From positions 1-26,364 of the forward strand of contig JASGCH010000001.1 in NCBI GenBank assembly GCA_030054245.1: 26,364 bases of DNA, in the 5' to 3' direction. A program made the translations under genes and the position numbers. Every line of letters starts with the position of its first letter. Position 1 is the first letter of the stretch. The notes below the pieces were generated by a model. The model was not told the DNA's origin, did no database searches, and saw only the letters and a program-made list of their open reading frames with translations. This document shows positions 3,106 through 23,513 of this stretch, one piece after another. This stretch comes from Gammaproteobacteria bacterium. GTDB lineage: Bacteria > Pseudomonadota > Gammaproteobacteria > Burkholderiales > Burkholderiaceae_C.

Positions 3106-3204
3106 CCATTTGTGGAGCGCCCATCAGCCACAAACTGGTTTGTGGAGCCTAAAACTAAATTTAAGCTCCGCAAAACCATTTATGGAGCACAGCCGCTCCA
3201 CAAA
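3106..3204. repeat. Three tandem short palindromes (tttRtggagc...gctccRcaaa)
   Basis: Units at about 3106-3138, 3137-3177 and 3179-3204. The first unit is only partly paired. A partial copy also sits at 1-21. Confidence 0.7.
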
Positions 3205-3227
3205 CCCACCATGAAAAAGACTGAAGT

Positions 3228-3244
3228 AAGACTGTTGCACAACC
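3228..3244 (+). mobile_element. Solo left terminal inverted repeat of the palindromic MITE family, directly upstream of res
   Basis: AAGACTGTTGCACAACC, identical to the left end of the copy at 15095. Confidence 0.85.
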
Positions 3245-3260
3245 CAATGGAAGTAGCAAA

Positions 3261-6200
3261 ATGAAACTCAAATTCAAAACCCAAGACTATCAGACAGCCG
3301 CGGTGCGTGCCGTGGTCAACTGTTTTAAGGGACAAGCTCCCGCGTCCGTGGACGCCATGCGTTACCGCATGGATCCGGGCAGTAACGACAATGTGTTTGT
3401 GGAAATCGGCAGTGGAATCAAAAACGCTGACCTGTCGTTGTGCGAGGCGACTCTGCTCACCAACATCTGCGACATACAACGCACCCAGAACCTGCCATTG
3501 TCCGATCAACTGGTTGAGACCAAGGTCGCCAAAGTCAACCTCGACATCGAGATGGAAACTGGCACCGGCAAAACCTATTGCTATATCAAGACCATTTTCG
3601 AGCTAAACCAGCAGTACGGCTGGAGCAAGTTCATCATCGTCGTACCCAGCATTGCTATTCGCGAGGGTGTGGCCAAGTCGCTCGACATCACTGCGGAACA
3701 TTTCCTAGAGTTTTACCACAAGAGATTGCGTTTTTTCATCTACAACTCTAAACAATTACACCACTTGGAAAGTTTCTCGTCGTCTGCTGGTATCCAGGTC
3801 ATGGTAATCAATGTCCAAGCGTTTAATGCCACTGGTAAGGATGCCCGCCGTATCTACGAAGAGTTAGATGATTTTCAGTCTCGTCGCCCGATTGATGTGA
3901 TCAGCGCTAACCGCCCAATCCTGATCCTTGACGAACCACAAAAAATGGAAGGTACTGCGACCCTGAAGTCCTTAGAAGAATTTAAGGCTTTAATGGTTTT
4001 GCGCTACTCTGCCACACACAAGACCACGCACCACAAGATTTACCGCCTCGATGCACTGGATGCCTACAACCAGAAGCTGGTGAAGAAAATTGCTGTGCGT
4101 GGCATATCGGTAAAAGGGCTAGCCGGAACCAACGCTTACCTTTACCTACAATCCATCGAAATCTCCAGCAAGAAACCGCCCGAGGCGCGTGTGGAGTTTG
4201 AGCAAAAACTAGCGGGCGGCAGAATCAAACGGCTCGTGAGGAAGCTCTCCAAAGGACACAACCTGTTCGACTTGTCAAACCAACTCGATGAATATCGCCA
4301 TGGTTTTGTCGTAGCCGATATCAACGCCAACCTCGACACCCTGAGCTTCACCAATGGTGTTGAGCTGACCGTTGGGGATGCAACCGGTGATGTTACTGAA
4401 GACGCACAGCGCCGTATCCAGATCCGCGAAGCCATTAAGGCACATTTCGACAAGGAACAGATGCTGTTCCCGCAAGGGATTAAGGTCCTGACCCTATTTT
4501 TCATCGACGAAGTGGCTAAGTATCGCGATTACTCTGCAGAAGATGAGAAAGGCGACTATGCGCGGATCTTTGAAGAAGAATACGGACTGTACTTGAACGA
4601 GTTGCTGGGGCAAGATGAAACGCCGTACACCAAGTACCTAAAAGGCATTTCGGCCGACAAGACCCACAGCGGCTATTTTTCCATTGACAAGAAGAACCAG
4701 CGGCTGACTAACCCCAACTTCACGCTACGAGGTGAGAACGCCGGATTCTCCGACGATGTCTCTGCCTACGACCTGATCCTAAAGGACAAGGAACGGCTGT
4801 TATCACTCACCGAGCCAGTGCGTTTTATCTTCTCCCACTCGGCCCTGCGCGAAGGCTGGGACAATCCCAATGTGTTTGTCATCTGCGCACTCAAGCACAG
4901 CGACAACACGATTTCTCGGCGTCAGGAGGTGGGGCGCGGCTTGCGTCTTTGCGTGAATCAAAAGGGTGAGCGCGTGGATCATCCGGCCACGGTGCACGAT
5001 GTGAATGTGCTAACCGTAATCGCCAGTGAGAGTTATAAGGATTTTGTCGCGGCACTGCAAAAGGACATCAGCGATTCGCTGTCGGCGCGACCAAGGGTGG
5101 CAGACGCGACCTACTTCACCGGCAAGGAGCTGGCTACCTCAACTGGGTCACTGGTTGTCACGAAAGAACAGGCGGACGACATTGAGTTCTACCTGATCCA
5201 AAATGGCTATGTTGATAAAAAACGCAACATCACCGAAAAGTACCACCAAGCTAAGAAAGACGGCACACTGGCGGTGTTGCCCGGCGAGTTGGCAGAACAC
5301 CCCGAACAGGTCTTCAAGCTCATCAACAGCGTTTTCAGCGACAGCCAGTTACCCGAAATCAGCGACGACCGTCGCCCCAAAAAGAACCCGATTAACGCTA
5401 ACTTTCACAAGCAGGAGTTTATCGAACTGTGGAATAAGCTCAATCGCAAGGCCGCCTACAGCGTGGACTTTCATTCACCTGAATTGGTCAAGAATGCCAT
5501 CACGGAACTGAATAAGTGCCTGCGCGTAACGCCGTTGCAATATACCATCCAGACAGGCGAACAAGCCGATCAGGTAAGCTATCACCAATTAAAAGGCGGT
5601 GAAGCCTTTGTGCTCAAGGAAACTGAAATAGAAACCAATATACCCTCCATACATTCGGCAGTAAAATACGACCTCATAGGCAAGATCGCTGAAGGGACGG
5701 AGCTCACGCGACGCACCGTAACTGAGATCCTCAAGGGAATCGACCACGCAAAATTTGCACAGTTCCGTAGCAATCCGGAGAGCTTTATGGCCGAGTCTAT
5801 TCGCCTGATCAACGAGCAGAAGGCCACGATGCTCATCGAACACTTGGCCTACGACCCGGTTGAGGACAAATTTGACCTCGACATTTTCACTGACGGGCAA
5901 ACCAAGCAGGACTTCAGCCAAGCCGGTAAAAAGCTCAACCAACACATCTACGACTACGCCATCACGGGCTCCGACATAGAAAGGGATTTTGTAAAGGAAC
6001 TCGACACCAGCACGGAGGTCGTGGTGTACGCCAAATTGCCCCGTGGCTTCCTAATACCCACCCCCGTCGGCGACTACAACCCCGACTGGGCTATCGCGTT
6101 CAAGGAAGGTTTGATCAAGCACATTTATTTCGTGGCTGAAACCAAGGGATCTATGTCGTCCATGGCACTCACGAAGATCGAACATACAAAAATCGAGTGT

Positions 6201-6302
6201 GCGCGCAAGTTCTTCAACGAAATCAACAAGAAATACGCCCCTGAAAATGTCAAGTACGATGTAGTGAATAGCTTCGAAAAACTGATGGAACTGGTGAAAT
6301 GA
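3261..6302 (+). CDS. res: Type III restriction endonuclease (Res subunit)
   Basis: 1013 aa; METGTGKT (Walker A), [13 protein letters not shown] and C-terminal NPDWA...AETKG nuclease motif. Confidence 0.95.
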
Positions 6303-6307
6303 GTATG

Positions 6308-6340
6308 ACCGTGGCACCAGCCCGATGGCGCAACAGTCTT
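6308..6340 (+). mobile_element. Right arm and terminal repeat of the MITE family, 5 bp after the res stop
   Basis: accgtggcaccagcccgatgGCGCAACAGTCTT, near-identical to the right arm of the copy at 6894-7124. Confidence 0.85.
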
Positions 6341-6373
6341 GTCTCAAGGATGACAGCTCACAGAACCAAGATT

Positions 6374-6408
6374 TTTATGTTATAATCTAAATCCGTAATC
6401 CCTTTTTT
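6374..6408 (+). promoter_or_regulatory. Repeated AT-rich motif with an extended -10 box (TGtTATAAT), copy A
   Basis: tttatgttataatctaaatccgtaatccctttttt; a similar copy lies at 8920-8953. Confidence 0.45.
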
Positions 6409-6482
6409 GAGCTTACGCCACCTGGGTGAGCTAGCAACATATAAGGCTGAAGAACGATCGCAACCAGCTTCATTTCCAAAGA
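6409..6482 (+). mobile_element. Truncated internal module of the MITE family
   Basis: ggtgagct...aaggctg...gcaaccagcttcatttccaaaga aligns with 13659-13717 and is interrupted by a terminal repeat at 6483. Confidence 0.65.
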
Positions 6483-6499
6483 AAGACTGTTGCACCATC
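6483..6499 (+). mobile_element. Solo left terminal inverted repeat
   Basis: AAGACTGTTGCACCATC. Confidence 0.85.
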
Positions 6500-6893
6500 A
6501 AGCGACATGCCGATGAGCACCCGCGACCAAAGCAAATCGCAGAGGACTTGCTCAAACTCTGACATCTGGCTAAGCGCTACCCAATCAAAAAAGCCCAGCG
6601 GGAGGCATTATTGAAGCACCTATCGAAGACCGCGAAAGACACAGTCAGAAATTCAATTGACTGCATCGCCGATTATAAGGGCACGCTGAAATGACCCAAT
6701 CTGAACGCACAAATGAGCATCGAAGTACGCCAACTCCGTCCGAACCTACTTGGATGCCGGTTCCGTCGCAGAGGCGATGACCGCGTTAGGTTCCCAGTTC
6801 GAGGGGCTATTGGCTGATTTCGGAAAAGCTGATGGAGACATTTTTTTTAAAGATCCTCCATTCGCACAGCTTGCGGAATTTGCCCAACGCTAT
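6497..6893 (+). pseudogene. Decayed fragments of two unidentified, translationally coupled genes
   Basis: Frame IKRHADEH...YKGTLK* has an internal TGA and overlaps (ATGA) a second start. That second gene frameshifts into KYANSVRTYLDAGS...AQRY and is cut by the element at 6894. Confidence 0.45.
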
Positions 6894-7124
6894 AAGACTG
6901 TTGCCCGGCGGCTGGTGCCGCTCGGTGAGCCGTCATCATTACAAGGCTTCCGCGAATGCCTCCAGCGGAATTTACTCAAATGATCATGGTGGGTGCTCCC
7001 AGTCTCGCATATTGAGTATATGCGAGACTGGGAGCGGAAGCGCAATGGATAGCGCAACGAACGGGGCACATACATAACGCAGTCATTTGGCAACCGCGGC
7101 ACCAGCCGATGGTGCAACAGTCTC
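6894..7124 (+). mobile_element. Long-form (231 bp) palindromic MITE
   Basis: Ends AAGACTGTTGCCC / GTGCAACAGTCTC; central 18-bp hairpin at 6995-7035 with loop TGAGT. Confidence 0.9.
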
Positions 7125-7173
7125 AAATAAGTATGGAGCACACTATTTTTTTTTACATTTAACAGGAATTTTT

Positions 7174-8346
7174 ATGACAATATACCACAGTTTTCAAAAA
7201 CTGAGTTTGCTTCTACTGCTTGGTCTTAGTGTTCAAGTGGGCGCACAAACCCAAGGAGTAGAGAAGGACAGTATTTTGGTAGGCTCCATCCAAGATTTGT
7301 CGGGTCCTGGTGCTAGTTATGGCAAACAAGCACGCTTCGGTATGATGCTACGAGTTGACGAAATCAACGAACAAGGGGGTATCCACGGAAGGAAATTGAT
7401 TCTTAAAGTTGAAGACTCAGGGTACGACCCTAAAAAAGCTTTGTTAGCCGCCCAAAAATTGGTCAATCAGGACAAAATTTTTATCATGTTAGCCCACATA
7501 GGCACCACCACCAATTTGGCGACCATGCCAGTGCAGTTTGAGAAAAATGTCATCAACTTCATGCCACTAGCCGCGGCTAGGCAAATGTACGAACCCTTTC
7601 ATAAATTAAAATTCGCTCTGCTCGCGACTTACTATGATCAGATGCGTGCGGCGGTCCCCGTTTTGGTCAAAGAAAAAAACGCCAAAGTCGTCTGCACCTT
7701 ATACCAAGACGATGAATTTGGCTTAGAAGTAGCCACTGGTGGCGAAGACGGCTTAAAAAAACTCGGCATGACTTACGCTGAAAAAACCACCTACAAACGA
7801 GGTGCTACTGATTTTTCTTCGCAAGTTGCCAAATTAAAATCCAGCCATTGTGATTTTGTGGTGCTAGGTACCATTCTTCGAGAAACCATAGGTACCTTAT
7901 CAGAAGCTAAAAAGATTGGATTTAACCCAGTTTTTCTAGGTAGCAATACATCTTATACCGACCTCATTCACAAATTAGGTGGCAAAACGGTAGAAGGATT
8001 TTACGCGACCATGACCACTCAAAATCCCTATACGGATGATATTTCCGAACCTATTCGCCTTTGGGCTAATAAGTACAAAACCAAGTTTAATGAAGATCCT
8101 AATGTGATTTCTGTGTATGGCTATACCATTATGGATATCTTTGCTTTAGCCACCTCAAAAGTTGGCACCGATTTGACAACCGAAAACTTTATCAAAGCCA
8201 TGGATACGCTCCAAATTCCTAGAGACATTTTTGGTGGTCCTGAGATTTCGTTTGGACCTACCAAACGCTTAGGAAGTGATGAGTCTAGGATTTCGCAAAT
8301 TAAAGACGGGAAATGGGTAGCCGTGTCTAATTACACCAAACCTTGA
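7174..8346 (+). CDS. ABC transporter substrate-binding protein, branched-chain amino acid (LivJ/K-like) family
   Basis: Signal peptide, DLSGP, EINEQGGIHGRK and EDSGYDP motifs. Start placed at the ATG at 7174 after ACAGGA; the ORF-track start at 7087 lies inside the MITE. Confidence 0.88.
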   Translation: MTIYHSFQKLSLLLLLGLSVQVGAQTQGVEKDSILVGSIQDLSGPGASYGKQARFGMMLRVDEINEQGGIHGRKLILKVEDSGYDPKKALLAAQKLVNQDKIFIMLAHIGTTTNLATMPVQFEKNVINFMPLAAARQMYEPFHKLKFALLATYYDQMRAAVPVLVKEKNAKVVCTLYQDDEFGLEVATGGEDGLKKLGMTYAEKTTYKRGATDFSSQVAKLKSSHCDFVVLGTILRETIGTLSEAKKIGFNPVFLGSNTSYTDLIHKLGGKTVEGFYATMTTQNPYTDDISEPIRLWANKYKTKFNEDPNVISVYGYTIMDIFALATSKVGTDLTTENFIKAMDTLQIPRDIFGGPEISFGPTKRLGSDESRISQIKDGKWVAVSNYTKP

Positions 8347-8369
8347 TGGGCGGAACCTTTTATCTCTGA

Positions 8370-8607
8370 AAAACTGTTGCACCGACGGTTGGTGTCGCTC
8401 GGTAAACTGTCATCATTACAAGGCTTCCGCGAATGCCTCCAGCGGAATTTACTCAAATGACCATGGTGGGCGCTCCTGATCTCGCATATACTCAATATGC
8501 GAGATCAGGAGCGGAAGCGCAATGGATAGCGCAACGAACTTAAGCACATACATAACGCAGTAATTTGGCAGTTTAGCCGATGGCGTAGCTGTCGGTGCAA
8601 CAGTCTT
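8370..8607 (+). mobile_element. Long-form (238 bp) palindromic MITE with inverted hairpin loop
   Basis: Ends AAAACTGTTGCAC / GTGCAACAGTCTT; 19-bp hairpin at 8471-8513 with loop ACTCA. Confidence 0.9.
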
Positions 8608-8628
8608 TAGCCTGATAGTTCCCAAGGT

Positions 8629-8668
8629 AAGACTGTTGCACAGCTCGTCTGAGTTGTGCAAAGATCTT
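8629..8668. mobile_element. 40-bp mini derivative of the MITE
   Basis: AAGACTGTTGCACAgctcgtctgagtTGTGCAAAGATCTT forms an imperfect hairpin. Confidence 0.7.
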
Positions 8669-8919
8669 TGTTTGATGATACCACATACGCTTTCTACTAA
8701 ACTGTGCACCTGGAGTGCTTATAAAATTGTAACAGAAAAAAACTCCTAGGTCATTGTTCAATTTGCCCCAGTTTTCCACTCCCACAGTTGGAGGATCATG
8801 GGTTCTAGGTTTTGCGTTTAAATAAGAAATCAGGCCCAGAACGGCACATAGCTCCGGTAGCGGGTGGAGATTTGGGAGGGATCTGCGACTTTGATCTTTT
8901 CCCCGTCCAATCAGGAGTG

Positions 8920-8953
8920 TTTATGCTATAATCAAACTTGTAATTCCCTTTTT
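8920..8953 (+). promoter_or_regulatory. Repeated extended -10 motif (TGcTATAAT), copy B
   Basis: tttatgctataatcaaacttgtaattcccttttt, similar to 6374-6408; lies upstream of the RND operon. Confidence 0.45.
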
Positions 8954-9089
8954 GAGACCATTGCGCCACTGACTGTACTGCCAAATGACTGCCTGATATG
9001 CTTCACCCCGGATGAACACCTAAGTATATTCCGCTGGTTGCGCATAGCCTTGTAATTTGGCAGTTCGCCTGAGGTTGTACAAAGATCTA
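8954..9089 (-). mobile_element. Short-form (136 bp) degenerate MITE
   Basis: Degenerate ends GAGACCATTGCGC / GTACAAAGATCTA; internal modules (caaggct, accagcggaat, gcagtcatttggca) in reverse orientation; TTTTT on both sides. Confidence 0.7.
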
Positions 9090-9107
9090 TTTTTAGCAAC
9101 CTTGTCC

Positions 9108-12182: not shown

Positions 12183-12213
12183 CCCGTCTAAGCTCAATCT
12201 TTACCATCGCATA

Positions 12214-13605
12214 ATGCCTTACTGGATACTCTTTTTTATGGTAGGTACCTTGGTGGCTTGTCAAGTGCCCAAGTTACCCGCACCAGCCGACCTATCCTCC
12301 CCTTTACAATTACGCGCTTATGCCGACAAAATCGTCAATCCACAGCAGATCGACCATGACCAGCTTCATTGGTGGAGACATTTTGGCGACGCAGAACTCA
12401 ACGATTTACAAACGCTATTATCTAAACACTCGCCTAACCTAGAAATTTTAGCGGCTCAAATTCGTGCCGCCACAGCTTTGGTCGCCAGTACCAAGGCGAA
12501 TCCATACCCTGTAGTCAACCTAAGTACTTTCTCTTCTATCAGTAGCAATGCCAATACAGAGGCTTTGGTACGCAACTTTCAACCTAGTATCCCGATTTCT
12601 TGGCAAGTAGATGTCTGGGGACAAAACGACAAAAAAGTCCAACTCAATCAATCTGAAGTCTCCGCCCTACAAGCTGATTTTACCAGTGCCAAACTAGCCG
12701 CACAAAGCGATTTAGTACAGCTTTATTTTAACTTGAGAGCTTTGGATTATCAAACTTACCTCCAAAAGAAACTATGGCTTGCCTACCAACAAGCTGAAGC
12801 CGCGGTCTTGGCAAAACACCGCCTAGGCACAGCCTCTAGCTTAGATGTGGTGGTTTTACAAAAGCAAACGCAAACCCTAGCAACACACATTTTGGACTTA
12901 CAAACCGCGCGCGCACAAACTGAGCACGCCATGGTGGCATTGGTCGGTAAAACCCCGGCTGAACTGTCGATCCCGGCATGGCATGAGGACAAAGCCATGC
13001 AAAGCATTTCCCCCCTCCCCCCACTACCCCAAGAGATTCAAGCCGATATTTTAACCCGGCGCCCAGACTTACAAGCCGCCCAGTGGCGCGTACAAGAAGC
13101 TCATTTACAGCTAGGCATAGTACGCGACACATTCTTCCCTACCGTCAATTTTTCTTTGGCGCTAGGTTATCGATCGAACCAACTCGCCAACCTCGTCAAC
13201 GCCAGCAATACCTTTTGGTCACTAGGAGCCAACTCCTTAACTACCCTATTTGACTCTCAAGCCCGCCAAGCCAATTGGCAAATAGCTTATGCCAACTGGG
13301 AAAAATCCATAGCATTCTACCGTCTGCTCGTGATCAGTTCCTACCAAGCTTTAGAAGACAACCTAGTCAGCTACCAAAACCTCAGCTTAGAAATACCCTC
13401 AAGCCAACGCGCCTTAGAAGCCAGTGAAAAATACTTAAACCTCATCCAACAACAATACCACTTAGGTTATTTAGATGTCTTTGCCCTAACCACCGCCAAA
13501 ACGCAATACGCCAACGACCAGCTCCGCCATTACACAGTACTCAACCGTTTGCGCCTGACTGCCAGCCAATTGCTAGCACAGGGACTTATGTTACCTATAC
13601 CTTGA
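12214..13605 (+). CDS. Outer-membrane efflux lipoprotein (OMF, NodT/OprM family)
   Basis: Lipobox LVAC, SWQVDVWG and LTRRPDLQAA motifs. Start is uncertain (ATG 12214 chosen; ATG 12157 possible). Confidence 0.82.
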   Translation: MPYWILFFMVGTLVACQVPKLPAPADLSSPLQLRAYADKIVNPQQIDHDQLHWWRHFGDAELNDLQTLLSKHSPNLEILAAQIRAATALVASTKANPYPVVNLSTFSSISSNANTEALVRNFQPSIPISWQVDVWGQNDKKVQLNQSEVSALQADFTSAKLAAQSDLVQLYFNLRALDYQTYLQKKLWLAYQQAEAAVLAKHRLGTASSLDVVVLQKQTQTLATHILDLQTARAQTEHAMVALVGKTPAELSIPAWHEDKAMQSISPLPPLPQEIQADILTRRPDLQAAQWRVQEAHLQLGIVRDTFFPTVNFSLALGYRSNQLANLVNASNTFWSLGANSLTTLFDSQARQANWQIAYANWEKSIAFYRLLVISSYQALEDNLVSYQNLSLEIPSSQRALEASEKYLNLIQQQYHLGYLDVFALTTAKTQYANDQLRHYTVLNRLRLTASQLLAQGLMLPIP

Positions 13606-13628
13606 CTAGACCCAAGCTCCCCATACCT

Positions 13629-13855
13629 AAGACGGTAGTGCCATCAGCTGGTGCCGCTCGACGAGCTGTCAAAGTACAAGGCTGGAGGGAACACGCAACC
13701 AGCTTCATTTCCGAAGAGGATCATGGTGGATGCTCCCAGTCTCGCATATTGAGTATATGCGAGACTGGGAGCGAAAGCACCATGGATAGCACAACGAACT
13801 GGAGTACATACATAATGCAGTCATTTGGTAGTGCAGTAGGTTGCGCAACAGTCTT
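13629..13855 (+). mobile_element. Long-form (227 bp) palindromic MITE
   Basis: Degenerate left end AAGACGGTAGTGCC, right end GCGCAACAGTCTT; hairpin at 13732-13772 with loop TGAGT. Confidence 0.88.
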
Positions 13856-13898
13856 CACAATGTTATTCCAACTCTCTAACCATCTCTTCCTCGTTCAT

Positions 13899-13911
13899 GT
13901 GCAACAGTCTT
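13899..13911 (+). mobile_element. Solo right terminal inverted repeat
   Basis: GTGCAACAGTCTT, 43 bp beyond the previous element. Confidence 0.8.
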
Positions 13912-13931
13912 CTTATAGGTGTGTTTGCGGG

Positions 13932-14004
13932 AACTAACCAGCAAGCTCACCGGCGGCCATGGAGCGCAACGGAATTGCCACCGGTGCAACGCCCCTTGTT
14001 ATGT
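13932..14004 (-). other. Integron attC-like recombination site (73 bp)
   Basis: Minus strand reads ACATAAC...GTTGCACCGG...CCGGTGAGC...GTTAGTT, with R''/R' boxes and inner L boxes carrying an unpaired base. The MTase stop TAA lies inside R''. Confidence 0.75.
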
Positions 14005-14925
14005 GCCGGTCTTGAGTTCAAGGTTAGGCTGATAAATCTCTGGCAGACGCTCTTTGATTATTTCTACATATTTTACTTCTATTTCTATGCCAGTAAAATG
14101 ATAACCAAGCTGCTGAGCGGCTACTCATGTTGTACCACTCCCGGCAAACGGATCTAAAACAATGTTCTCTTTAGATTTTGGAACTAATGTAAGTATTAAC
14201 TTTTTATCAACTCCAGTGGCTTGACAGTACAGTGTGCGAATTTTTTTTTCGGATTTATTATAATAACCTTCGAAAATATTCGATTGAAAAGAGCCGTCTT
14301 CGTTGATTGTCTTAAATACACCAACACCTGTTTCTTGAAGCGTTTCCCAATAGTTGTTAAGAAGTGGTTTCTGAACTAACACAATGGATTCCCACTCGTT
14401 CCTGAAACAGGTATGCCAGCCATCCCATTTTTCCGCATCAGGATGGTTCATTTTTTCAAGTTTGCTATTGAGGTTTAGTCCTTTGGGAATACCAGAATGC
14501 CTACGGTAAACCAGAATATCTCGCGTATAAAACCCTACATCTTCCAGCGCAACTTGGATATGCGCCGCTGTCCTAGTGCTATTGAACACAGCAACGGGAG
14601 CGCCATGCTTACAAACCCTAAACAACTCTCGGCCCCATTGTTTACACCAATTGGTGTATTCAATAGTATTTTCCTGATTTCGTTCGTACCATCTAGCATT
14701 GCGTACTCCCCCCGCCAGTCCACTGCCGTAGGGTATATTTTTAACTAAAGTTTTACTGTCTTTGATTCGCTCTAGCCGCCGATTGATTTCCTTATTATCC
14801 CACTTGCGACCAATAAATTCATAGTTGTATGGCGGATCGGTGATACATGCCGCCATGGAGTCATTTGGCATTTCAGACATTACGGATACACAGTCACCTA
14901 AGATTATTTGATCTAAGTAATTCAT
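13999..14925 (-). pseudogene. Type II beta-class N4/N6 DNA methyltransferase, inactivated
   Basis: ITDPPY and VLDPFAGSGTT motifs. An in-frame TGA at 14125-14127 is followed by VAAQQLGYHFTGIEIE...GT*. The HCTVKP motif sits in a shifted frame between two homopolymer indels. Confidence 0.88.
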
Positions 14926-14927
14926 GA

Positions 14928-15640
14928 TCAACCCCTGGTAATAAAGAAGGTTTTTTGGTCGCTGTGGCAACGAAACCATTGATACAGATCAAAACCCGTC
15001 CTTCCCTTTAAATAATCGAATGTTGCCATTCCCGTGTAAACAGACCATCCACCTGCCTTGCAAGCTGTCATTGCAGACGGAAGATTATCTTCTCAAGACT
15101 GTTGCACAACCTCGACGAACTACCAAAGTGCAAGGCTTAGCGGAACGCAACCAGCGGAATTTACTCAAATGTAAATGAGCTGGTGAGTACCGCATAACGC
15201 AGTAATTTGGTAGTGCAGTCGGTTGTGCAACAGTCTTTTCTCGAAGACATAGAAACACAGGTCGATAACCATTCTCTTTCAGAAGGTATCCATACTGCTT
15301 GAACTTTTTCAAAGTTCCAGAATCACCGGAACCTACTCTATGTGTCAATAGCGTCCGTTCCGAGAACCAAGTAGCACAGTTCGTTACCACCCAATCTTAG
15401 AGCGCCGCTGAAATAAGAGCAAGTATTCTTGCAAAGTTCTACCACCAGAAGTTGCCAACACATTCCTAACTGCCTTCCCCAAAACTGTTTGTTTTCACGC
15501 TCCAACTCTTGCGTGATGCCAAATATCTCCATCAAAACATCTGTGGAGTCATCGTCATCCTCATAAACCTTATCGGAGAAGTTGCCTTGATATTTTTTGA
15601 GGATGTCTGAGAGATTTTTGTCAATGTCACTATGAGTCAT
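14928..15640 (-). pseudogene. Putative type II restriction endonuclease, broken by a frameshift and a MITE insertion
   Basis: AAGGA RBS then MTHSDID...DAIDT; frameshift near 15340 to RVGSGDSGTLKKFKQYG...LCLRE; MITE; then DNLPSAMTAC...FITRG*. The stop lies 2 bp before the MTase ATG. Nuclease function is inferred from context. Confidence 0.7.
15095..15237 (+). mobile_element. Short-form (143 bp) palindromic MITE with 5-bp target duplication
   Basis: Perfect 17-bp terminal repeats AAGACTGTTGCACAACC / GGTTGTGCAACAGTCTT; TTCTC at 15090-15094 and 15238-15242. Confidence 0.93.
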
Positions 15641-15665
15641 AGTTATCCTTTTTGATTTTATGGTC

Positions 15666-15678
15666 AAGACTGTTGCAC
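15666..15678 (+). mobile_element. Solo terminal inverted repeat 25 bp upstream of the nuclease pseudogene
   Basis: AAGACTGTTGCAC. Confidence 0.8.
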
Positions 15679-15779
15679 CTCGCGTGAGAGCGCGAAAGGT
15701 ATGCGTTCCTTTGCCTGAACGAGGGGACAAGCAAGAGCCGTGGGAGCAAGAAAACGACCACTTTTTTGCGTAATCTGGT

Positions 15780-16949
15780 TTAAAAGCTATAGCGATACAC
15801 CCGGGTATTTCTTGCTACAAAGCCCATACCTTGGTATAATTTGTGGGCTATTTCCCGGTCCGGTCTGGAGGTTAAATCTACATCCACTGCCCCCCATTCT
15901 TTAGACAGTTCCAAGGCTTTTGAGACTAATTTCTTGCTTATACCAAAACCACGCATTGTCTGATCAACCACCACATCGTTGATATGCGTGCGCAAAGCCG
16001 TTAGGTTAGCGTGTTGAATCAAGTTCAGCATTCCGACAATTTCCCCTTGATAGCGTGCCACTATTAAAGTTACATTCGAATTGCCTAGAAGCGTCTTTAT
16101 GTAGCCCAAGCTAGGGGGAGGGCGACTCGACAATTGCGGTATCAGGCTTTGGGAAGCCTGCCAAAATTCTTCGGCTTGCTCGGGTTGCACAGCAGATATT
16201 TCAAAGAGATCCGCCCATTTCTGGGTTAATATTTCTAGGTCATCTCTGGTATTAACCCCTCTCCAAGTCACATTTTCTTTAGGCATGCGTAGGCTACGCA
16301 CGGGCCATGCGCGTTCTCGAGCCAAACTGGCTATATCCGTCAAATAGTATTCATTTTGTTGGTTGTGGGGTGTCAGTAGAGGAATGAGTTGTTGCAGACA
16401 GCCCTTCGGTGCACACAAAATACCCGTATTGATGTGGTTGATGGTTTTTTCCTCTGGACTAGCGTCTTTTTCCTCTACGATGGTTTGAATATTGCCCAAG
16501 CGGTCTTCAACCACCCGACCATATCCATAAGACTCGTACACCTCAGCGGTTAAAAACACTAGGCTATTTTCTTGTTGTGATTGCTGTACCAGTTGGCGGC
16601 ACCAAGATAGGTCGATGAGTGGCACATCCCCGTATAACACCAAACAATGGTTTGCCGGATCAAGTTTGGCTAAACTAGCCCGCACCGCGTCTCCAGTGCC
16701 TCGGGGTACGGGTTGCTCAACAAATTGAATAGGCTCAAACTCCTCCAGCGAGGAACGCACTTGTTGTTGCTCAAAACCCACCACCACCAACAAGTTTGCA
16801 GGGTGTAATTTTTGGGCAGTTCGGATGACATGATGAAGTAACGGTATTCCCGAAAGCTCGTATAAGACTTTAGGTAAACTCGGCTCCCCTGCTTTTTGCA
16901 TACGCTTGCCTTGTCCAGCCGCTAAGATCACAATATCTAAGCCATTCAT
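15780..16949 (-). CDS. Fusion of a GlmU-type GlcNAc-1-P uridylyltransferase domain and a C-terminal GNAT acetyltransferase
   Basis: LAAGQGKRM, GTGDAV, YGDVP, YGRV, IVEEKD, EYYLTD and GVN in aa 1-about 245; HINDVVVDQTMRGFGISKKL...LYQGMGF in the C-terminal 140 aa; no hexapeptide repeats. Confidence 0.85.
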   Translation of the reverse strand: MNGLDIVILAAGQGKRMQKAGEPSLPKVLYELSGIPLLHHVIRTAQKLHPANLLVVVGFEQQQVRSSLEEFEPIQFVEQPVPRGTGDAVRASLAKLDPANHCLVLYGDVPLIDLSWCRQLVQQSQQENSLVFLTAEVYESYGYGRVVEDRLGNIQTIVEEKDASPEEKTINHINTGILCAPKGCLQQLIPLLTPHNQQNEYYLTDIASLARERAWPVRSLRMPKENVTWRGVNTRDDLEILTQKWADLFEISAVQPEQAEEFWQASQSLIPQLSSRPPPSLGYIKTLLGNSNVTLIVARYQGEIVGMLNLIQHANLTALRTHINDVVVDQTMRGFGISKKLVSKALELSKEWGAVDVDLTSRPDREIAHKLYQGMGFVARNTRVYRYSF

Positions 16950-16958
16950 ATACTCCCC

Positions 16959-17945
16959 CTACCCCTGCATTTGTTGCCACATTTGCAAATCCCGTTCAGC
17001 CGTCCAGATTCTGGGGTGCTTAATGCCACTTGCTTCATCATAAGCCCGACTGACATCAAAAGGCAAACAATGTTCATACAAAAAAACCTTAGCAAACACT
17101 GGGTCCATTTGTTGTCTGGTAAGTTCCATCGCTTGTTTAAGATTGAGTTGTTGTTGGACGGCTTGTTGGGCACTTTGCCACAAAATCTCAATCCACCTTT
17201 TGGTAAAATCTAGTCCTCGATTGACTTCTACAGACCCGCTTAATGCCGTACCTCGCCCTGGCACCAAGTGTTCCGGGGACAATAATCGCAATTGCTCTAA
17301 AGTATGGGGCCATTCTGCCAATTGGGCATCCCCAGTATAAACACCGGCGTCGCACTCTACCAAATCCCCACTAAACAATACCCTTTCACTTTCCAGCCAA
17401 ACAATCGTATCACCACGCGTATGGCCAGCCCCTGGGTGCCAAATTTCTACCGTGATACCCCCTAAATCCACACGCAGGGCGCTATCTCTGCCAACCGCTT
17501 TGGCACTGCCGCCAATAACCAAGGTTGGATAAGTCAAGCCTGGGATACTATCCACCCCACGAAACAACCTAGGAAACCTCTCAATTTCACTGCGCATATC
17601 TTGTGCGCCGCGTTCTTGAATCATTTCCCAAGTGGGGTAACTGGCAATAATCTCCGACAAGCCTTCGGCAACAAATCCTTGAGCACCCAATACCCGCACC
17701 GCATGGTAATGCGATAAAACAATATACTTAATCGGCAAATCACTAATTTGGCGAATTTCTTGGATCAGCTTTTGGGCCATCTCTGGAGTCGCAGTACAGT
17801 CGCAAACCAAAATAGCCTTTTGACCTATAATGACCCCTGAATTAGGGTCACCTTCGGCGATATAAGCCCAACAATGGGGGCTCATCTGAACAAGTTTAAT
17901 ATTTTGTTCACCCCAATCCGCTTGACTGGCAAATGTTTTATTCAT
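16959..17945 (-). CDS. MBL-fold metallo-hydrolase
   Basis: SHYHAVR (variant HxHxDH), GHTRGD and LFSGDLVE motifs; probably co-transcribed with the GlmU-GNAT gene (9-bp gap, GGAG RBS). Confidence 0.85.
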   Translation of the reverse strand: MNKTFASQADWGEQNIKLVQMSPHCWAYIAEGDPNSGVIIGQKAILVCDCTATPEMAQKLIQEIRQISDLPIKYIVLSHYHAVRVLGAQGFVAEGLSEIIASYPTWEMIQERGAQDMRSEIERFPRLFRGVDSIPGLTYPTLVIGGSAKAVGRDSALRVDLGGITVEIWHPGAGHTRGDTIVWLESERVLFSGDLVECDAGVYTGDAQLAEWPHTLEQLRLLSPEHLVPGRGTALSGSVEVNRGLDFTKRWIEILWQSAQQAVQQQLNLKQAMELTRQQMDPVFAKVFLYEHCLPFDVSRAYDEASGIKHPRIWTAERDLQMWQQMQG

Positions 17946-17972
17946 AAAAGTCCTAACTACAATGATCCATAA

Positions 17973-18007
17973 AAGACGGTTGCACCATCGGCTGGTGCAA
18001 CCGTCTT
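17973..18007. mobile_element. 35-bp mini MITE (perfect 14-bp arms)
   Basis: AAGACGGTTGCACC atcggct GGTGCAACCGTCTT; the same T-to-G change is present in both arms. Confidence 0.85.
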
Positions 18008-18158
18008 TTCATTATATCCTAAAAACTGTTGCTTCCTGCACACTTCACTCACCATGTCTGCAAACCACCTTCTCCTATAGGCTAAACCCGCCCTAAGGCA
18101 GTGATTGGTAGCCGGCCGCCATGCCACAACGCTGATAACCCCAGCATACTCCTTCGAT

Positions 18159-19985
18159 TTAGCTGTCTCTTGAGGCTTTTTTTCTCTCATGCCCTTTTAA
18201 ATGTTTTTTGCGTAGCCGAATATGTTTAGGTGTCATCTCGACCAATTCGTCGTCTTCAATAAATGCCACCGCAAACTCTATACTTAGATCTAATGGAGGA
18301 GTAATTTTGATAGCATCCTCTTTCCCACTGACCCGAAAATTGGTCAATTGTTTGGTGCGTGTGGCGTTAACTACCAAATCATTGTCTCGACTATGAATGC
18401 CCACAATCATGCCTTCATACACCCGATCACCATGGGTGACAAACATCCGTCCTCTATCATCTAGTTTACCTAAAGCGTAATTGACCACCACCCCCTCATC
18501 CATGCTGATAAGTACACCGTTTTTGCGACTAGGAAGCTCGCCTTTGTAGGGGGCGTATCCATGAAAAATACTGCTACTTAAACCAGTGCCCCGTGTAATA
18601 TTCATAAATTCGGTGTGAAATCCGATCAGTCCTCGTGCGGGAATTAGATATTCTAGGCGCACTCGGCCGATAGTATCCACTTGCATATTCGCCAATTCTC
18701 CCTTCCTTTCGCCTAAAATTTGCATGAGCGTACCTTGGCTTTGTTCCTCAATGTCTATAACCAGCAACTCTATGGGTTCATACATTCCATCAGCGCGCGG
18801 TTGTAAGACTACGCGTGGTTTAGAGACCGCTAGCTCGTAACCTTCTCGACGCATATTCTCCATCAGTATGGTGAGGTGTAATTCTCCTCTCCCAGACACC
18901 TCGAATACCCCGTCCTCCTCGGTTATATGCATTCTTAACGCCACATTGGTTTGTAGTTCTTTCTCTAAGCGATCGCGCAGATGACGGCTGGTCACAAATT
19001 TACCATCCTTACCTGCGTACGGAGAATTATTCACACAAAAGTGCATACTTAAAGTAGGAGGATCGACCTGCAAATTGGGCAAGGGTCTTGGATCGTCTAT
19101 ATCCGTAATGGTTGCCCCTATGGAAATTTCTTCCAAGCCACTGAGCAATACTATTTCTCCCGGACCAGCTTCTTCTATAGAGACTCTTTCTATACCCTGA
19201 AAATGCCAAATTTGACCGATTTTTCCATTATTGGCCACTCCACCCACACCGTGCACCACAGACACCAGACTGTTGGTTTTGACAATCCCTTGGCTGACTC
19301 GACCGATGGCAATGCGTCCGACATAGCTAGAGTAATCTAAGGAACTGATCTGCAATTGTAAAGGCGCGTGTTCATCACCTTGAAATGTACTAGCATGCCC
19401 CACAATCGTGGCAAATAATGGATCTAAATCAGTACCCCACGCTTCACCATCTGTACCTCTTTCTAAGGAAGCCCAGCCATTAAGACCTGACGCATAGACG
19501 ATAGGGAAATCTAATTGTTCCACCGTTGCCTGTAAATTATCAAACAAGTCAAATACCTCATTGATCACTTGATCAATGCGCACCCCTAATCTATCCACCT
19601 TATTAATCACGACGATCGGTTTAAGACCTAAAGCCAAAGCTTTTTGTGTGACAAAGCGTGTTTGGGGCATAGGTCCCTCCACCGCGTCTATCAACAGCAG
19701 TACTCCGTCCACCATCGACAAAGCTCGTTCAACTTCACCACCAAAGTCAGCGTGTCCTGGAGTGTCTACAATATTTATCCTAATCTCGTTCCAGTCCACG
19801 GCACAATTTTTGGCTAAGATGGTAATTCCGCGTTCTTTTTCCAAAGGATTACTATCCATAATGCGTTCTTGTGACGCTTGATTCTTGCGTAGGGCTCCGC
19901 TTTGTTTCAGCAGTTGATCGACTAAAGTGGTTTTACCATGATCGACATGGGCTATGATGGCTATATTTAATATTTTATTGGACAT
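18159..19985 (-). CDS. typA: Translational GTPase TypA/BipA
   Basis: [39 protein letters not shown] and [11 protein letters not shown] motifs; start at MSNKIL (ATG 19985). Confidence 0.97.
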
Positions 19986-20102
19986 AGAAAAAGATTGATT
20001 GAACAAGCTCGAAAAATGTTGATTACCATTATTTTCCGATGGTTATTGGGTTTTCAGGGTGTCTGATAACATCCTTCTGTAGCTCATTCCCATAATGAGG
20101 AT

Positions 20103-20500
20103 TTGGCACCGACGGCTCACCGAGCGGCGTAGCCGTCGGTGCCAAGGTCTCTTTATATGCGAGAATAGCGAGCCTAGGTGTAACCGCGGCGTAGCCGATG
20201 GTGCAACAGTAAGACTGTTGCACAACTGGTTACACTGCCCAATTACTGCGTTATGTATGTGCCTCAGTTCGTTGCGCTATCTATTGCGCTTCCGCTTCCA
20301 GTCTCGCATATACTCAATATGCGAGACTGGAAGCGCCACCAGCTCATTTACATCCGAGTAAATTCCGTTGGTTGCGTTCGCTCCAGCCTTGTAATTATAC
20401 AGCTCACCGAGCGGCGTAGCCGATGGTACAACAGTCTTACAGTCTTAACGCAGTAATTTTACAGTGTAACCGACGGCAAAGCCCTAGGTGAAACAGTCTT
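20103..20500. mobile_element. Nested cluster of MITE copies and fragments
   Basis: 15-bp-arm hairpin at 20103-20145; right ends at about 20151, 20201-20210 plus 20444-20446 (split), 20438 and 20500. Confidence 0.85.
20211..20438 (-). mobile_element. Long-form (228 bp) MITE inserted into the terminal repeat of another copy
   Basis: Ends AAGACTGTTGCAC / GTACAACAGTCTT; ACAGT duplicated at 20206-20210 and 20439-20443; 19-bp hairpin at 20293-20335. Confidence 0.92.
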
Positions 20501-20574
20501 ATTTTAGTTACGGAAACAAGCCATCGACAGAGGAACTGGGGGCTAACATGGGAAACCAAGATCAAGGTATCCGC

Positions 20575-21702
20575 TCATTTAAGCATCAGTTCGAAGGATT
20601 TGATGCCGCTGAGGGTCCTAGGCTGGCGGCCCGGATGCAATGTTCCGCTGACCTTTACAAAAGCCCCGTCCTTCATGTGAGCTTTGTCAGCCTGCTCGTA
20701 TTGCTCGGCGGTTAGAGTGGTGCGCGCCCGCACCAACTCGTCACCATCTGCCATGAGCAATCGGAGAATCACATCACCCACACGCCTGCCATCCTGTCCG
20801 ATGACACCCTCCAGCTGTTCAACCGTAGCCAGGAAGACATCCTCAAGGTCTTTCTCCTCTGGGCGAAGCGCACGGCGCACTTCTTCAATGCGGTGGAAAT
20901 AATCATGCTGAATGCGGATCATCGATACCCGCCCCTCGTTCGCTGGTTTGGGAATCGCCGATGCCCAAGTGATGCCAATCTCGACCGAGTTCTTGAGCGT
21001 TGAGTCCTCAAAACGCGCGAGTGCCTCACACAGATTCGAAGACACGACCGGGTTTTGGCCATTCTTAGTGGCTTCGACAAAGGTGTCCAAAGCATCGGTT
21101 TCGATCGCCGTAACGAGTTCTCCCAAGGCTTTGCGTAAGGTGACTATCGTGCGCCGGCCGAAAGGTGCATCAAACCATGTAGCCTGCACACCCAAACCCT
21201 GCACGGGGCATGACACATTCAGCACGAAGCTCCCATGCTGGGTGTGCCGAAACTTAGCAGTTTCGAGAAACTGCTGGGACTCTGCCCGGTTTAGTCGCGG
21301 ATAATGCGCCTGCGGCTTCAAAACGGTGCAGGCAGATGCCAGCAACAGTTGTTGGGCGCCGGTTATCATCGAGCCAACGAACACGAGGGGTAGCGACCTC
21401 TCATCAAGTCGCGGTGTCGTCACGCGAAAAGCAATGGCATCATCCCCTACTTCCAGAAGATTTTTGATGACCGCCTGTGCGCTTCGACCTTCCATCACGG
21501 CGAGTTTGTCCACGACCAACATGACGGCTTCGGAGTAATCTGGCGCTGTCGTGTCCATCGGAAACACCAATTGCCGCCCCTTGAAGTGAGGGTTGGTCAT
21601 CACATAAAGCCGGTCTTGAACAGCTTCCGTCAACAAAACCCAACCTTGATCCTTGGCATAATCGCGCAGGTCGGTCGGGGGAATGAACGGTTCAAGATTC
21701 AT
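20575..21702 (-). CDS. Hypothetical protein (375 aa), GC-rich and probably foreign, coupled to the upstream DUF4365-like gene
   Basis: Intact ORF from MNLEPF; its ATG overlaps the upstream TGA (ATGA). No motif recognised. Confidence 0.75.
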   Translation of the reverse strand: MNLEPFIPPTDLRDYAKDQGWVLLTEAVQDRLYVMTNPHFKGRQLVFPMDTTAPDYSEAVMLVVDKLAVMEGRSAQAVIKNLLEVGDDAIAFRVTTPRLDERSLPLVFVGSMITGAQQLLLASACTVLKPQAHYPRLNRAESQQFLETAKFRHTQHGSFVLNVSCPVQGLGVQATWFDAPFGRRTIVTLRKALGELVTAIETDALDTFVEATKNGQNPVVSSNLCEALARFEDSTLKNSVEIGITWASAIPKPANEGRVSMIRIQHDYFHRIEEVRRALRPEEKDLEDVFLATVEQLEGVIGQDGRRVGDVILRLLMADGDELVRARTTLTAEQYEQADKAHMKDGAFVKVSGTLHPGRQPRTLSGIKSFELMLK

Positions 21703-21962
21703 ACAGCAGAAGGATAACAAGGATAATCGCAACGAGAAAGCCGGCTAGCTATCTCAGTGAGAGCCTCTGGGGTGAATCTCTGCACCTTCGGCAGATACAC
21801 AGTCACACCACTGCTATTGCCAGTAGCGGGAGCCCGGCGCAGGCTCTGCCAATAGGCGCACTTGCGAAGCACCAATTCATCCTCTGAATGCGTTAACCAC
21901 TTCTGCGCGTCCGCTGGAAGAAACAGCACCACGAGGATGCGCGGTACGCTAACTTTAGCCAT
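21699..21962 (-). pseudogene. C-terminal fragment of a DUF4365-like (PD-(D/E)XK-type) protein
   Basis: VPRILVVLFLP...WL...LVLRKCAYWQSL...VTVYLP resembles the DUF4365 C-terminus as recalled; the 5' half is absent. Confidence 0.55.
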
Positions 21963-22009
21963 CTCACATCGGGGTCTGCCCCTTGTCGTTTTGTTACAAC
22001 TATCTTCAT

Positions 22010-22915
22010 TCAGATAGAGGCAGACTCAGTTTGCGGCAATAACCTCTTTGGACACAAGCAACCAGCCTCGATGGCCCCTAAACCAACAAAACGCCCTTCA
22101 TGGTACACCGATATTTGGGAGCAGTTGGTGTCCTCTACCATAAACTTTTTACCTTGTAAAAAACTTTGAAGTTGCTCGTTATTTAATTGCCAACGCGGTA
22201 ACTGCTTGAATAGGCTATCCAAAGGCAATATACAAGCTCGACGCTCTTCTTCCGTTAGTTTCTGTAAATTCTCAAAGCTAACGGCTTGATCTATTTGAAA
22301 AGGGCCGCATTGTACTCGCCTTAAGGAGGCTAAATAGCCATAGGTACCCAGAAATTGGGCCATATCTTCGGCTAAGGTACGAATATAAGTACCTTTACTA
22401 CATTGAACACTAACAACCAGTCTGCGCCCTAATGAAGATGGAGTGATTTCGGCAAGTTCTAATTGCAAGATTTCGATTTTACGCGGGGTTCTTTCAACAG
22501 TCTCTCCTCTTCTTGCATAAACATACAATGGTAACCCATTTTTTTTGAGGGCACTATACATAGGAGGTGTTTGCCAAATCGTTCCCAAAAATTTCAGCTT
22601 TAACTCATCCATTTTACTAGGGTGAAAATCGACGACCGCTTGGTTGATCATCTCTCCTTCAGCATCCGCGGTAGAAGTTTGATACCCTAACTGTATAACC
22701 GCCTGATAAGTTTTGGTGGCATCTAAGGCCAGTTGGCTATAGCGCGTAGCATACCCCAGAAGTATAGGCAATATCCCCGTGGCCATAGGATCAAGGGTAC
22801 CCGTGTGCCCGGCCTTAGATATCTTCAATAAACTTTTCAGCTGTTGCAATGCTTGATTGCTGGAAATATGTGAACATTTGTCCAACAATAATACGCCAGA
22901 GAAGGATGGATCCAC
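22010..22915 (-). CDS. truB: tRNA pseudouridine(55) synthase
   Basis: KAGHTGTLDPMATG, QTPPMYSALK and CSKGTYIRTLAED; GTG start. Confidence 0.97.
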   Translation of the reverse strand: MDPSFSGVLLLDKCSHISSNQALQQLKSLLKISKAGHTGTLDPMATGILPILLGYATRYSQLALDATKTYQAVIQLGYQTSTADAEGEMINQAVVDFHPSKMDELKLKFLGTIWQTPPMYSALKKNGLPLYVYARRGETVERTPRKIEILQLELAEITPSSLGRRLVVSVQCSKGTYIRTLAEDMAQFLGTYGYLASLRRVQCGPFQIDQAVSFENLQKLTEEERRACILPLDSLFKQLPRWQLNNEQLQSFLQGKKFMVEDTNCSQISVYHEGRFVGLGAIEAGCLCPKRLLPQTESASI

Positions 22916-22929
22916 GATTTGATATAGTT

Positions 22930-22950
22930 AAGACTGCTTTACACAGTCTT
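22930..22950. repeat. 21-bp minimal MITE remnant (both termini fused)
   Basis: AAGACTG ctttaca CAGTCTT between rbfA and truB. Confidence 0.6.
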
Positions 22951-22961
22951 AAAGTTAAAGT

Positions 22962-23306
22962 TCAGGTTAATTTTATCGCCTTGTCTATGAGTGCCTGCAT
23001 TGCCCTAGATTTTTCTAGGGTAGCGTCAAATTCAAAATAAAGTCGAGGGATCGTGTGTAATGTGAGTCTTTTGAATAGATGTTTTCTGATGATGTTGCTA
23101 GCCGCATTCAAAACTTTGGTAATAGTTGCCTCGTCACCTTTCAACAATGAAAAATACACTTTGGCAGTAGAATAATCAGGGGCAAGTTTAATATCTTGAA
23201 TAGACACAAACAACAAACGCGGATCTTTTAATTCCAAAACTAAAATTTCTGCAATATCCTTGGCTATTTGCGTAGCCACTATTTCTGAGCGAATTGGTTT
23301 TGGCAT
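22962..23306 (-). CDS. rbfA: Ribosome-binding factor A
   Basis: KDPRL, LAPDYSTAKVYF and IPRLYFEFD; lies between infB and truB; start at MPKPIRSE (the track start at 23408 is inside a MITE). Confidence 0.93.
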   Translation of the reverse strand: MPKPIRSEIVATQIAKDIAEILVLELKDPRLLFVSIQDIKLAPDYSTAKVYFSLLKGDEATITKVLNAASNIIRKHLFKRLTLHTIPRLYFEFDATLEKSRAMQALIDKAIKLT

Positions 23307-23376
23307 GATTATCAACAATTGACAAAAAATAGATAAGTTTACAACCCATTCAGATGTAGCGATAACTAAGGTCCTT

Positions 23377-23513
23377 ACCTCTGTTGCACAAGGGTCATAC
23401 ACTGCCAAATTACAGCGTTATACGACTTAACCCTAGCTGAATATCCTTCCGCTGTTCTGCAAAGCCTAAGCTTGTGGTTGACAAGAGTTTATCCGAATGT
23501 GTGCAACAGTCTT
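23377..23513 (-). mobile_element. Short-form (137 bp) degenerate MITE between infB and rbfA
   Basis: Ends ..CTGTTGCAC / GTGCAACAGTCTT; acactgccaaattacagcgttat aligns with 20232-20254. Confidence 0.8.

Follow-up and report, generated by a model that had tools for sequence, protein, structure and literature searches.

The window analyzed here is the whole of contig JASGCH010000001.1 (C251, 26,364 nt) of assembly GCA_030054245.1, which spans 1.58 Mb in 270 contigs, is 55% complete, and has a G+C content of 44%. It opens with genes in the order Mod (95-1978), Fic (1989-3104), and Res (3261-6302), and it carries a family of short palindromic repeats with inverted termini. [quoted passage not shown] The TypA protein of the host best matches Burkholderiales and Comamonadaceae-type proteins, and since the identity reaches only 72-73%, the host is a divergent betaproteobacterium; it is the sole member of its genus in the genome collection searched. 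We conclude, with a probability of roughly 0.85, that the repeats constitute an IS5-type MITE family, that is, non-coding foldback elements of 35 to ~270 bp mobilized by an IS5-family transposase. The terminal repeats that bound them are those of an IS5-family insertion sequence (IS).

The terminus AAGACTGTTGCAC, with up to two mismatches allowed, occurs 19 times in the window on both strands, compared with a mean of 0.77 and a maximum of 3 in dinucleotide-preserving shuffles. All seven complete elements, the three miniature copies (minis), and the solo ends (3228 to 20444-20500) that the first-pass annotation had reported are present (Table 1), the seven elements beginning where it had placed them, and repeat finding recovers their common modules together with long inverted matches between copies. 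The internal modules CAAGGCT, CAGCGGAATTTACTCA, and CATAACGCAGTAATTTGG, said to be shared throughout, occur in most copies, but they are variant or degenerate in the elements that start at 8954, 13629, and 23377. No element contains a protein that matches any family, in agreement with the earlier statement that none encodes a transposase.

The flanks of the repeats record their insertion. Among the 132 units in the assembly that are bounded by two termini, 23 are flanked by an exact 5-bp direct repeat, compared with an expectation of 0.48 from flank shuffling. The same 132 units show no excess of duplications of 2 to 4 bp and not a single case at 6 to 9 bp. The transposition scars noted by the first-pass annotation are genuine. 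In the window, three of the seven complete elements carry a target site duplication (TSD), and the sharp 5-bp TSD of the bounded copies indicates that they are true MITEs. The duplicated 5-mers are 70% A+T, versus 56% for the genome. TSDs flank four of the four scorable copies in the 143-bp class (a fifth runs off its contig and was left out), 10 of 34 copies of 150-175 bp, 5 of 25 copies of 216-270 bp, and 3 of 37 minis. The median pairwise identity is 91% (maximum, 98%) within the 143-bp class and 72% and 64% within the larger classes; the 143-bp class is the youngest and the larger classes are older.

The units measure 35-270 bp, and no NCBIfam family is matched by the 143-bp copy in any of its stop-free frames. 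Their terminal inverted repeats have a 13-nt core, which extends to 17 nt in a short-arm form and to 29 nt in a long-arm form (consensus from 68 and 392 ends). A sister end type, GAGACCTTTGCAC / GTGCAAAGGTCTC, accounts for 85 exact termini; its arms and interior are those of the main type, and 10 of 46 copies have a 5-bp TSD. Only one long stretch, the 5.4 kb at C192:960-6316, has termini that face inward and the same 5 bp (TAATA) on both flanks, and it may be a chance match or a composite.

IS5-family remnants and related ends

A PF01609 search of the assembly returned one weak match at the end of contig C69, where positions 15140-15306 encode the C-terminal ~52 residues of a transposase of the IS5 family; they match NF033581 (transpos_IS5_4) over positions 226-277 of the 285-position profile, with an E value of 5.7e-10. 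That this remnant shares an end with a MITE was considered and is ruled out by orientation, as it lies between the outer ends of two MITE insertions. A tblastn search with four IS5 transposases (from Francisella, then three more) located a larger remnant at C27:13473-14165 with E values down to 4e-17. It spans query residues ~106-338 with stops and a frameshift, and it matches NF033581 at E values of 2e-9 and 2e-8. A further tblastn match, on contig C95, falls inside an ordinary gene and is a false positive.

The larger remnant retains its own IS end. Within C27:13364-14172, the sequence AAGACTTTTGCACAACCTAGG starts at 13364 and faces inward to the 3′ end of the transposase gene, while a 251-bp MITE interrupts the gene and severs its 5′ part. 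Compared over 21 bases, this IS end and that of the short-arm MITEs, AAGACTGTTGCACAACCTCGG, agree at 19. Contigs C39, C227, and C258 carry this IS end as well, with as much as 175 bp of the interior; its outer flanks are all different, which fixes the IS boundary at AAGAC.

Two further arrangements were observed at these loci. At C39:10219-10434, a 175-bp piece from the end of the IS5 remnant, which takes in the last part (3′) of the transposase gene, runs directly into the right arm of a MITE and has no TSD; this chimera looks like an IS-MITE intermediate. At C27:12570-15900, the transposase pseudogene lies between two genes that, judged by eye, resemble conjugative-transfer genes (TraF-like and TraH-like), and a conjugative element may have brought in the parent IS. 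No rve-type (IS3/IS481) transposase is present in the assembly, and the transposase fragment has no match at E values of ≤1e-8 in 200 genera of the host's family.

We compared the MITE termini with the IS5 copies that lie nearest to the remnant by tblastn. The IS5 of a Francisella novicida plasmid has the ends AAGACTGTTGATTT… / …CAACAGCCTT (left motif AAGACTGTTGA…) and the TSD TTATC, that of Desulfolutivibrio has GAGACCGTTGCAC… / …GTGCAGCGGTCTC and ATATA, and that of Solidesulfovibrio has GAGACCAATGCAC… / …GTGCAGTGGTCTC and ATATC. A Bealeia IS5 copy has AAGACCATTGCAT ends and no TSD, and a Neisseria IS1106-like remnant ends in TGCAAAGGTCTC. With the ends aligned side by side, the MITEs and these relatives share the IS5-subgroup motif (G/A)AGAC(C/T)NTTGCA, and the TSD is 5 bp long both in the MITEs and in the three related IS5 copies. 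Hairpins of the form GACTGTTGCAC-N-GTGCAACAGTC are numerous in Selenomonas genomes, where several lie at the ends of contigs (e.g., CALIBA010000029.1, 14-53), and they may represent IS ends or MITEs from this IS5 subgroup in Firmicutes.

Architecture and genomic placement

The features of the family in the window are collected in Table 1.

Table 1. Copies and partial copies of the MITE family in the 26,364-nt window
Feature	Position	Strand	Remark
Solo left end AAGACTGTTGCACAACC	3228..3244	+	16 bp upstream of res start codon
Solo right arm, long-arm type	6308..6340	+	shortly past res stop codon
Interior fragment (6422-6482) abutting solo left end (6483-6499)	6422..6499	+	6428-6482 is 76% identical to 13663-13717
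Complete element, 231 bp; long arms, core modules, central 41-nt perfect hairpin (6995-7035)	6894..7124	+	no TSD
Complete element, 238 bp	8370..8607	+	88% identity to 6905-7062 over 158 nt; no TSD
Mini, 43 bp, variant right end GTGCAAAGATCTT	8629..8671	.	terminus search
Degenerate element, 136 bp, opposite orientation, degenerate ends	8954..9089	-	TTTTT flanks on both sides
Complete element, 227 bp; central hairpin identical to that at 6995	13629..13855	+	no TSD
Solo end	13899..13911	-	terminus search
Short-arm element, 143 bp, youngest subfamily	15095..15237	+	TTCTC target duplication
Solo left end	15666..15678	+	terminus search
Mini, 35 bp; perfect 15-bp stem, 5-nt loop; T6-to-G variant in both arms	17973..18007	.	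no TSD
Mini, 48 bp, sister end type (…GGTGCCAAGGTCT)	20103..20150	.	terminus and repeat search
Right arm of host element, split by the 20211 insertion and continuing at 20439 past the ACAGT duplication	20186..20210	+	repeat search
Complete element, 228 bp, inserted in terminal repeat of another copy	20211..20438	-	ACAGT target duplication
Right portion of a third element, ending GTGAAACAGTCTT	20444..20500	+	repeat search
Element, 137 bp; left end degenerate, right end perfect	23377..23513	-	no TSD

The elements are built from arms around a center, and most of their length folds back on itself. The 143-bp form is one nearly full-length hairpin (-74 kcal/mol; z = -11.8), and the 231-bp element at 6894 folds at -117.7 kcal/mol (z = -8.8). 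Short arms of 17 nt end in …CACAACC, and long arms of 29 nt end in …CACCATCGGCTGGTGCCGC and contain a small hairpin of their own. In the ~230-bp forms, the central module is a perfect 18-bp stem, which belongs to a 41-nt hairpin found in the window at 6995-7035 (-34.4 kcal/mol), 8472-8512, 13732-13772, and 20294-20334. Genome-wide, 73 copies of this hairpin keep 14 or more of the 18 pairs, among them 36 perfect ones. Compensated cells in its stems number 317, as against 157±12 for shuffled data, and the 5-nt loop points either way even among elements of the same orientation; the hairpin of the 238-bp element at 8370 displays both compensated stem changes and a flipped loop. Such covariation could come from shared descent or from templated correction of quasi-palindromes, with no need for selection.

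The AT-rich loop of the central hairpin adjoins 22 termini, by a rough estimate ~50 times more than its genomic share would predict, and is thus a recurrent site of nested insertion. Hybrid end types are frequent, and a copy's own two arms show weak matching (7.36 versus 7.98 mismatches per 29 nt; p = 0.018) that mostly reflects subfamily structure. In the 35- and 45-bp minis, the left arm reads, at the short direct repeat GGTGC, into the final bases of the right arm, which suggests that minis are products of deletion between arms. They carry the outer 13-26 bases of the MITE arms.

The family is not confined to the window. The exact 13-mer AAGACTGTTGCAC occurs 286 times in the assembly and 670 times with one mismatch, and the degenerate pattern RAGAYNNTKGCAC identifies 695 termini. 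A BLAST search with bounded copies yields 603 blocks that total 76.6 kb, equivalent to no less than 4.85% of the assembly and to a block every 2.6 kb. The window was described as saturated with these elements, which is accurate at a coverage of 5.8% but does not set it apart from the genome as a whole. An element end lies within 150 bp of a contig end in 70 of the 270 contigs, which probably explains the fragmentation of the assembly.

We next consider placement relative to genes, for which gene context was taken from a crude longest-open-reading-frame (ORF) model with no gene caller. Only 11% of repeat bases fall in long ORFs, compared with 78% of other DNA, and the family makes up at least 17% of the DNA outside long ORFs. 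Among all spacers between long ORFs in the genome, the share that holds a copy is 32% for tandem, 53% for tail-to-tail, and 59% for head-to-head spacers. The association with accessory genes inferred from the window is therefore not specific, as ~32-59% of all such spacers carry a copy. Placement has no specific tie to accessory genes, promoters, or terminators and is indifferent to gene orientation. An unusually heavy MITE load is documented here in a divergent Burkholderiales lineage, the elements taking up no less than 4.85% of its DNA and occurring in between a third and a half of the spacers that separate long ORFs.

Several genes in the window have elements as close neighbors. The type III restriction gene res (3261-6302) lies between the inward-facing left end at 3228 and the right arm at 6340. 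These two are not TSD partners (flanks GAAGT and GTCTC), and with flanks that lack a target duplication, there is no evidence that res moves as cargo between them. The 143-bp element at 15095-15237 lies inside a nuclease-like pseudogene (14980-15730, minus strand) that adjoins an N6/N4 DNA methylase gene (14125-14979) and is broken both by this insertion and by a separate upstream frameshift. When the element and one TTCTC are excised in silico, the minus-strand frame runs on across the junction. In the minus-strand ORF at 15780-16949, two domains are joined, a nucleotidyltransferase (MobA-like / NTP_transferase) and a GNAT acetyltransferase. A 33-nt sequence with ATGAAA at its end occurs at 1-33 and 3184-3216, with 91% identity between the repeats; one lies at the contig start, ~60 bp before the methylase ORF, and the other before the solo end upstream of res.

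Origin of the family and comparison with known systems

The best reading of these repeats is that they are selfish, non-autonomous DNA whose driver is dead or unassembled. In the proposed mechanism, an IS5-type DDE transposase acting in trans would bind the 13-17 bp termini (A/G)AGAC(T/C)NTTGCAC, excise or copy the element, and, by way of a staggered cut of 5 bp, insert it at AT-rich sites. The parent would have had the ends AAGAC(T)(G/T)TTGCACAACC. Diversification would then have proceeded through changes in the arms (17 or 29 nt, with a nested hairpin in the long form) and in the center (the 41-nt hairpin of the longer forms), through insertion of copies into one another, and through deletion between short direct repeats within the two arms, from which the 35-45 bp minis would derive. 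The transposase itself would be dead or located in the unassembled part of the genome, and the elements would have no host function beyond the side effects of strong intergenic hairpins.

Several points weigh against this account. The interior of the MITEs has no similarity to the IS remnant past the first ~21 nt, so the link to the IS is drawn from the termini, the TSD length, and co-occurrence. A DDE transposase with the same terminal repeats, which the first-pass annotation proposed to look for, is represented by two decayed IS5 fragments, and no intact copy with these ends is present in the assembled 55% of the genome; given a half-complete assembly and multicopy ISs that rarely assemble, this absence is uninformative. 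TSDs are lacking in most copies, amounting to 77-83% of bounded units and 34 of 37 minis. Lastly, simple deletion in place fails to explain minis without a TSD.

The first-pass annotation had likened the family to the Rickettsia palindromic element RPE-1. Such elements (RPEs) are defined by a conserved encoded peptide and by frequent in-frame insertion into genes (PMC10969869). The repeats described here do recall RPE-1 in length (143 versus ~150 bp), palindromic build, and high copy number, and, according to the first-pass annotation, in motifs; one minus-strand frame of the element is fully open, and the copy in the nuclease-like pseudogene leaves a continuous frame upon excision. We nevertheless give next to no credence to a relationship with these peptide-encoding, in-frame repeats. 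The TIGR01045 RPE1 model has no match at E values of ≤10 in a six-frame translation of the genome, despite hundreds of copies, nor in the 143-bp copy, which has five stop-free stretches of at least 20 residues in four of six frames. The left end indeed translates as RLLHNL, but this has no bearing on the question. Moreover, the elements lie outside genes, as their small share of long ORFs indicates, and the single case in the window sits in a frameshifted pseudogene, while clear 5-bp TSDs and IS5-type termini point to another origin. The family is not RPE-like, and it thus says nothing about how RPEs move. A second type of palindrome, the repetitive extragenic palindromic (REP) sequence, is spread as single-stranded hairpins by REP-associated tyrosine transposases (RAYTs) of the IS200/IS605-like type. 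The 35-bp minis are perfect hairpins of REP size that mostly lack a TSD, and arms are partly matched within copies, but the outer 13-26 bases of the minis are those of the MITE arms, and the larger copies have a sharp 5-bp TSD, a mark that enzymes of the IS200/IS605 type do not leave. The genome has no Y1_Tnp (PF01797) match, although an assembly that is 55% complete does not prove absence. We regard a RAYT origin as extremely improbable.

Mobilization by some other transposase that duplicates 5 bp (e.g., of the Tn3, IS1380, or IS701 type), with a coincidental or convergent IS5 end match, would fit the lack of an intact IS5 transposase and the restriction of MITE-IS similarity to ~21 terminal bases. 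It is very unlikely, however, as 19 of those 21 bases are identical to those that end an IS5 remnant carried by this very genome, and the same motif and TSD length recur in three independent IS5 relatives. The assembly also contains no rve and no further DDE_Tnp_1 matches, other families not having been scanned individually. Retention of the repeats for host use, as terminators, mRNA stabilizers, or sites for RNase III or protein binding, is a highly improbable alternative, and nothing points to a host function. In its favor are very stable hairpins (z of -8 to -12), central stems that covary, and whole-hairpin pairing in the 150-175 bp copies slightly above the random-substitution expectation (0.862 versus 0.810, from a simulation without transition bias, a bias that would inflate the observed value). 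Yet transition bias and shared descent can yield such an excess, and in the same copies broken pairs amount to 267 cells versus 43 compensated. Predicted promoters and terminators are no more frequent than in shuffles, and copies occur in tandem, tail-to-tail, and head-to-head spacers alike. Rfam yields nothing at the gathering threshold or above noise; at E values of ≤1, only perfect hairpins give spurious, miRNA-like matches. A different process, in which the hairpin form is itself propagated or repaired during the spread of IS5-type MITEs, by a single-strand hairpin step or by templated palindrome correction, is unlikely; it would fit the full-length foldback, the arms with nested hairpins, the covarying stems and flipping loops, the partly matched arm variants, the minis without TSDs, and the preference for insertion at the loop. 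If it holds, a hairpin process would have driven one of the highest bacterial MITE densities known, with a block every 2.6 kb and ~40% of spacers between long ORFs occupied.

The IS5-derived MITE is an ordinary kind of element, and this family is unusual in its density and in its modular foldback build; its nested hairpins and minis without TSDs raise a small question of how such elements diversify. A blastn search of 150 genera of the host's family detected no homologs, 40 relatives lacked the exact mini pattern, and plasmid and phage collections gave no match. A broad scan of genome contigs, which possibly did not include the host genome itself, returned other hairpins only, mostly from Selenomonas and Clostridia. 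Two metagenome scans gave 0 matches and 1 match, respectively, the latter seemingly unrelated, and the terminal-repeat string does not appear in the literature searched. The family itself is thus without a match in the collections searched, while both the kind of element and this end type have already been described.

The closest parallels are the MITEPgRS/MITE464 and BrickBuilt elements of Porphyromonas gingivalis, whose parents are ISPg1, ISPg4, and ISPg9 of the IS5 family (PMC4596501). According to Table 2 of Klein et al. 2015 (PMC4596501), which also lists BrickBuilt and ISNme1, ISPg4 has the ends GAGACTGTTGCA / CGCAACAGTCTC, MITEPgRS/MITE464 has GAGACTGTTGCA / TGCAACGGTCTC, and ISNme1 has the end GAGACCTTTGCAAAA. 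The terminal motif is the same in both families, with GAGACTGTTGCA / TGCAAC(A/G)GTCTC in Porphyromonas and AAGACTGTTGCA here, and both are non-coding, present in many copies, linked to an IS5 parent by their terminal repeats, and often nested within other elements. They differ in copy number (~600 blocks in half a genome here versus 19 BrickBuilt copies) and in the TSD, which is a sharp 5 bp here and reported as irregular for BrickBuilt. No similarity past the termini was found in any collection searched; the P. gingivalis sequences were outside the direct comparison. In Neisseria meningitidis, ISNme1 (IS1106) is the proposed parent of the AT-rich repeat (ATR) MITE (PMC4596501), and the sister end GAGACCTTTGCAC equals the ISNme1 end over 12 bases. 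Both hosts are betaproteobacteria, and the best tblastn matches of the transposase remnant include a Neisseria element. ATR differs in interior and architecture, with ~19 copies per genome (PMC4596501), whereas the element here is GC-neutral and a full-length foldback.

The IS5 elements of the NF033581 type, from Francisella novicida, Desulfolutivibrio, and Solidesulfovibrio plasmids, share the terminal motif and the 5-bp AT-rich TSD with our family, and the transposase remnants of this genome match the same model, but those elements are autonomous, at ~1.2 kb with a transposase of 330-343 aa, whereas the elements here carry no gene. The Correia elements (CREE) of Neisseria are likewise abundant intergenic MITEs in a betaproteobacterium that form hairpins when transcribed. 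Correia elements have characteristic 26-bp ends that begin TATAGTGGATTAA… and duplicate TA, in contrast to the AAGACTGTTGCAC ends and 5-bp TSD of our family, and the sequences are unrelated. The repeats of this genome instead provide a clean case of the 5-bp-TSD IS5 subgroup with (A/G)AGAC…TTGCA ends giving rise to MITEs, as in Porphyromonas and Neisseria.

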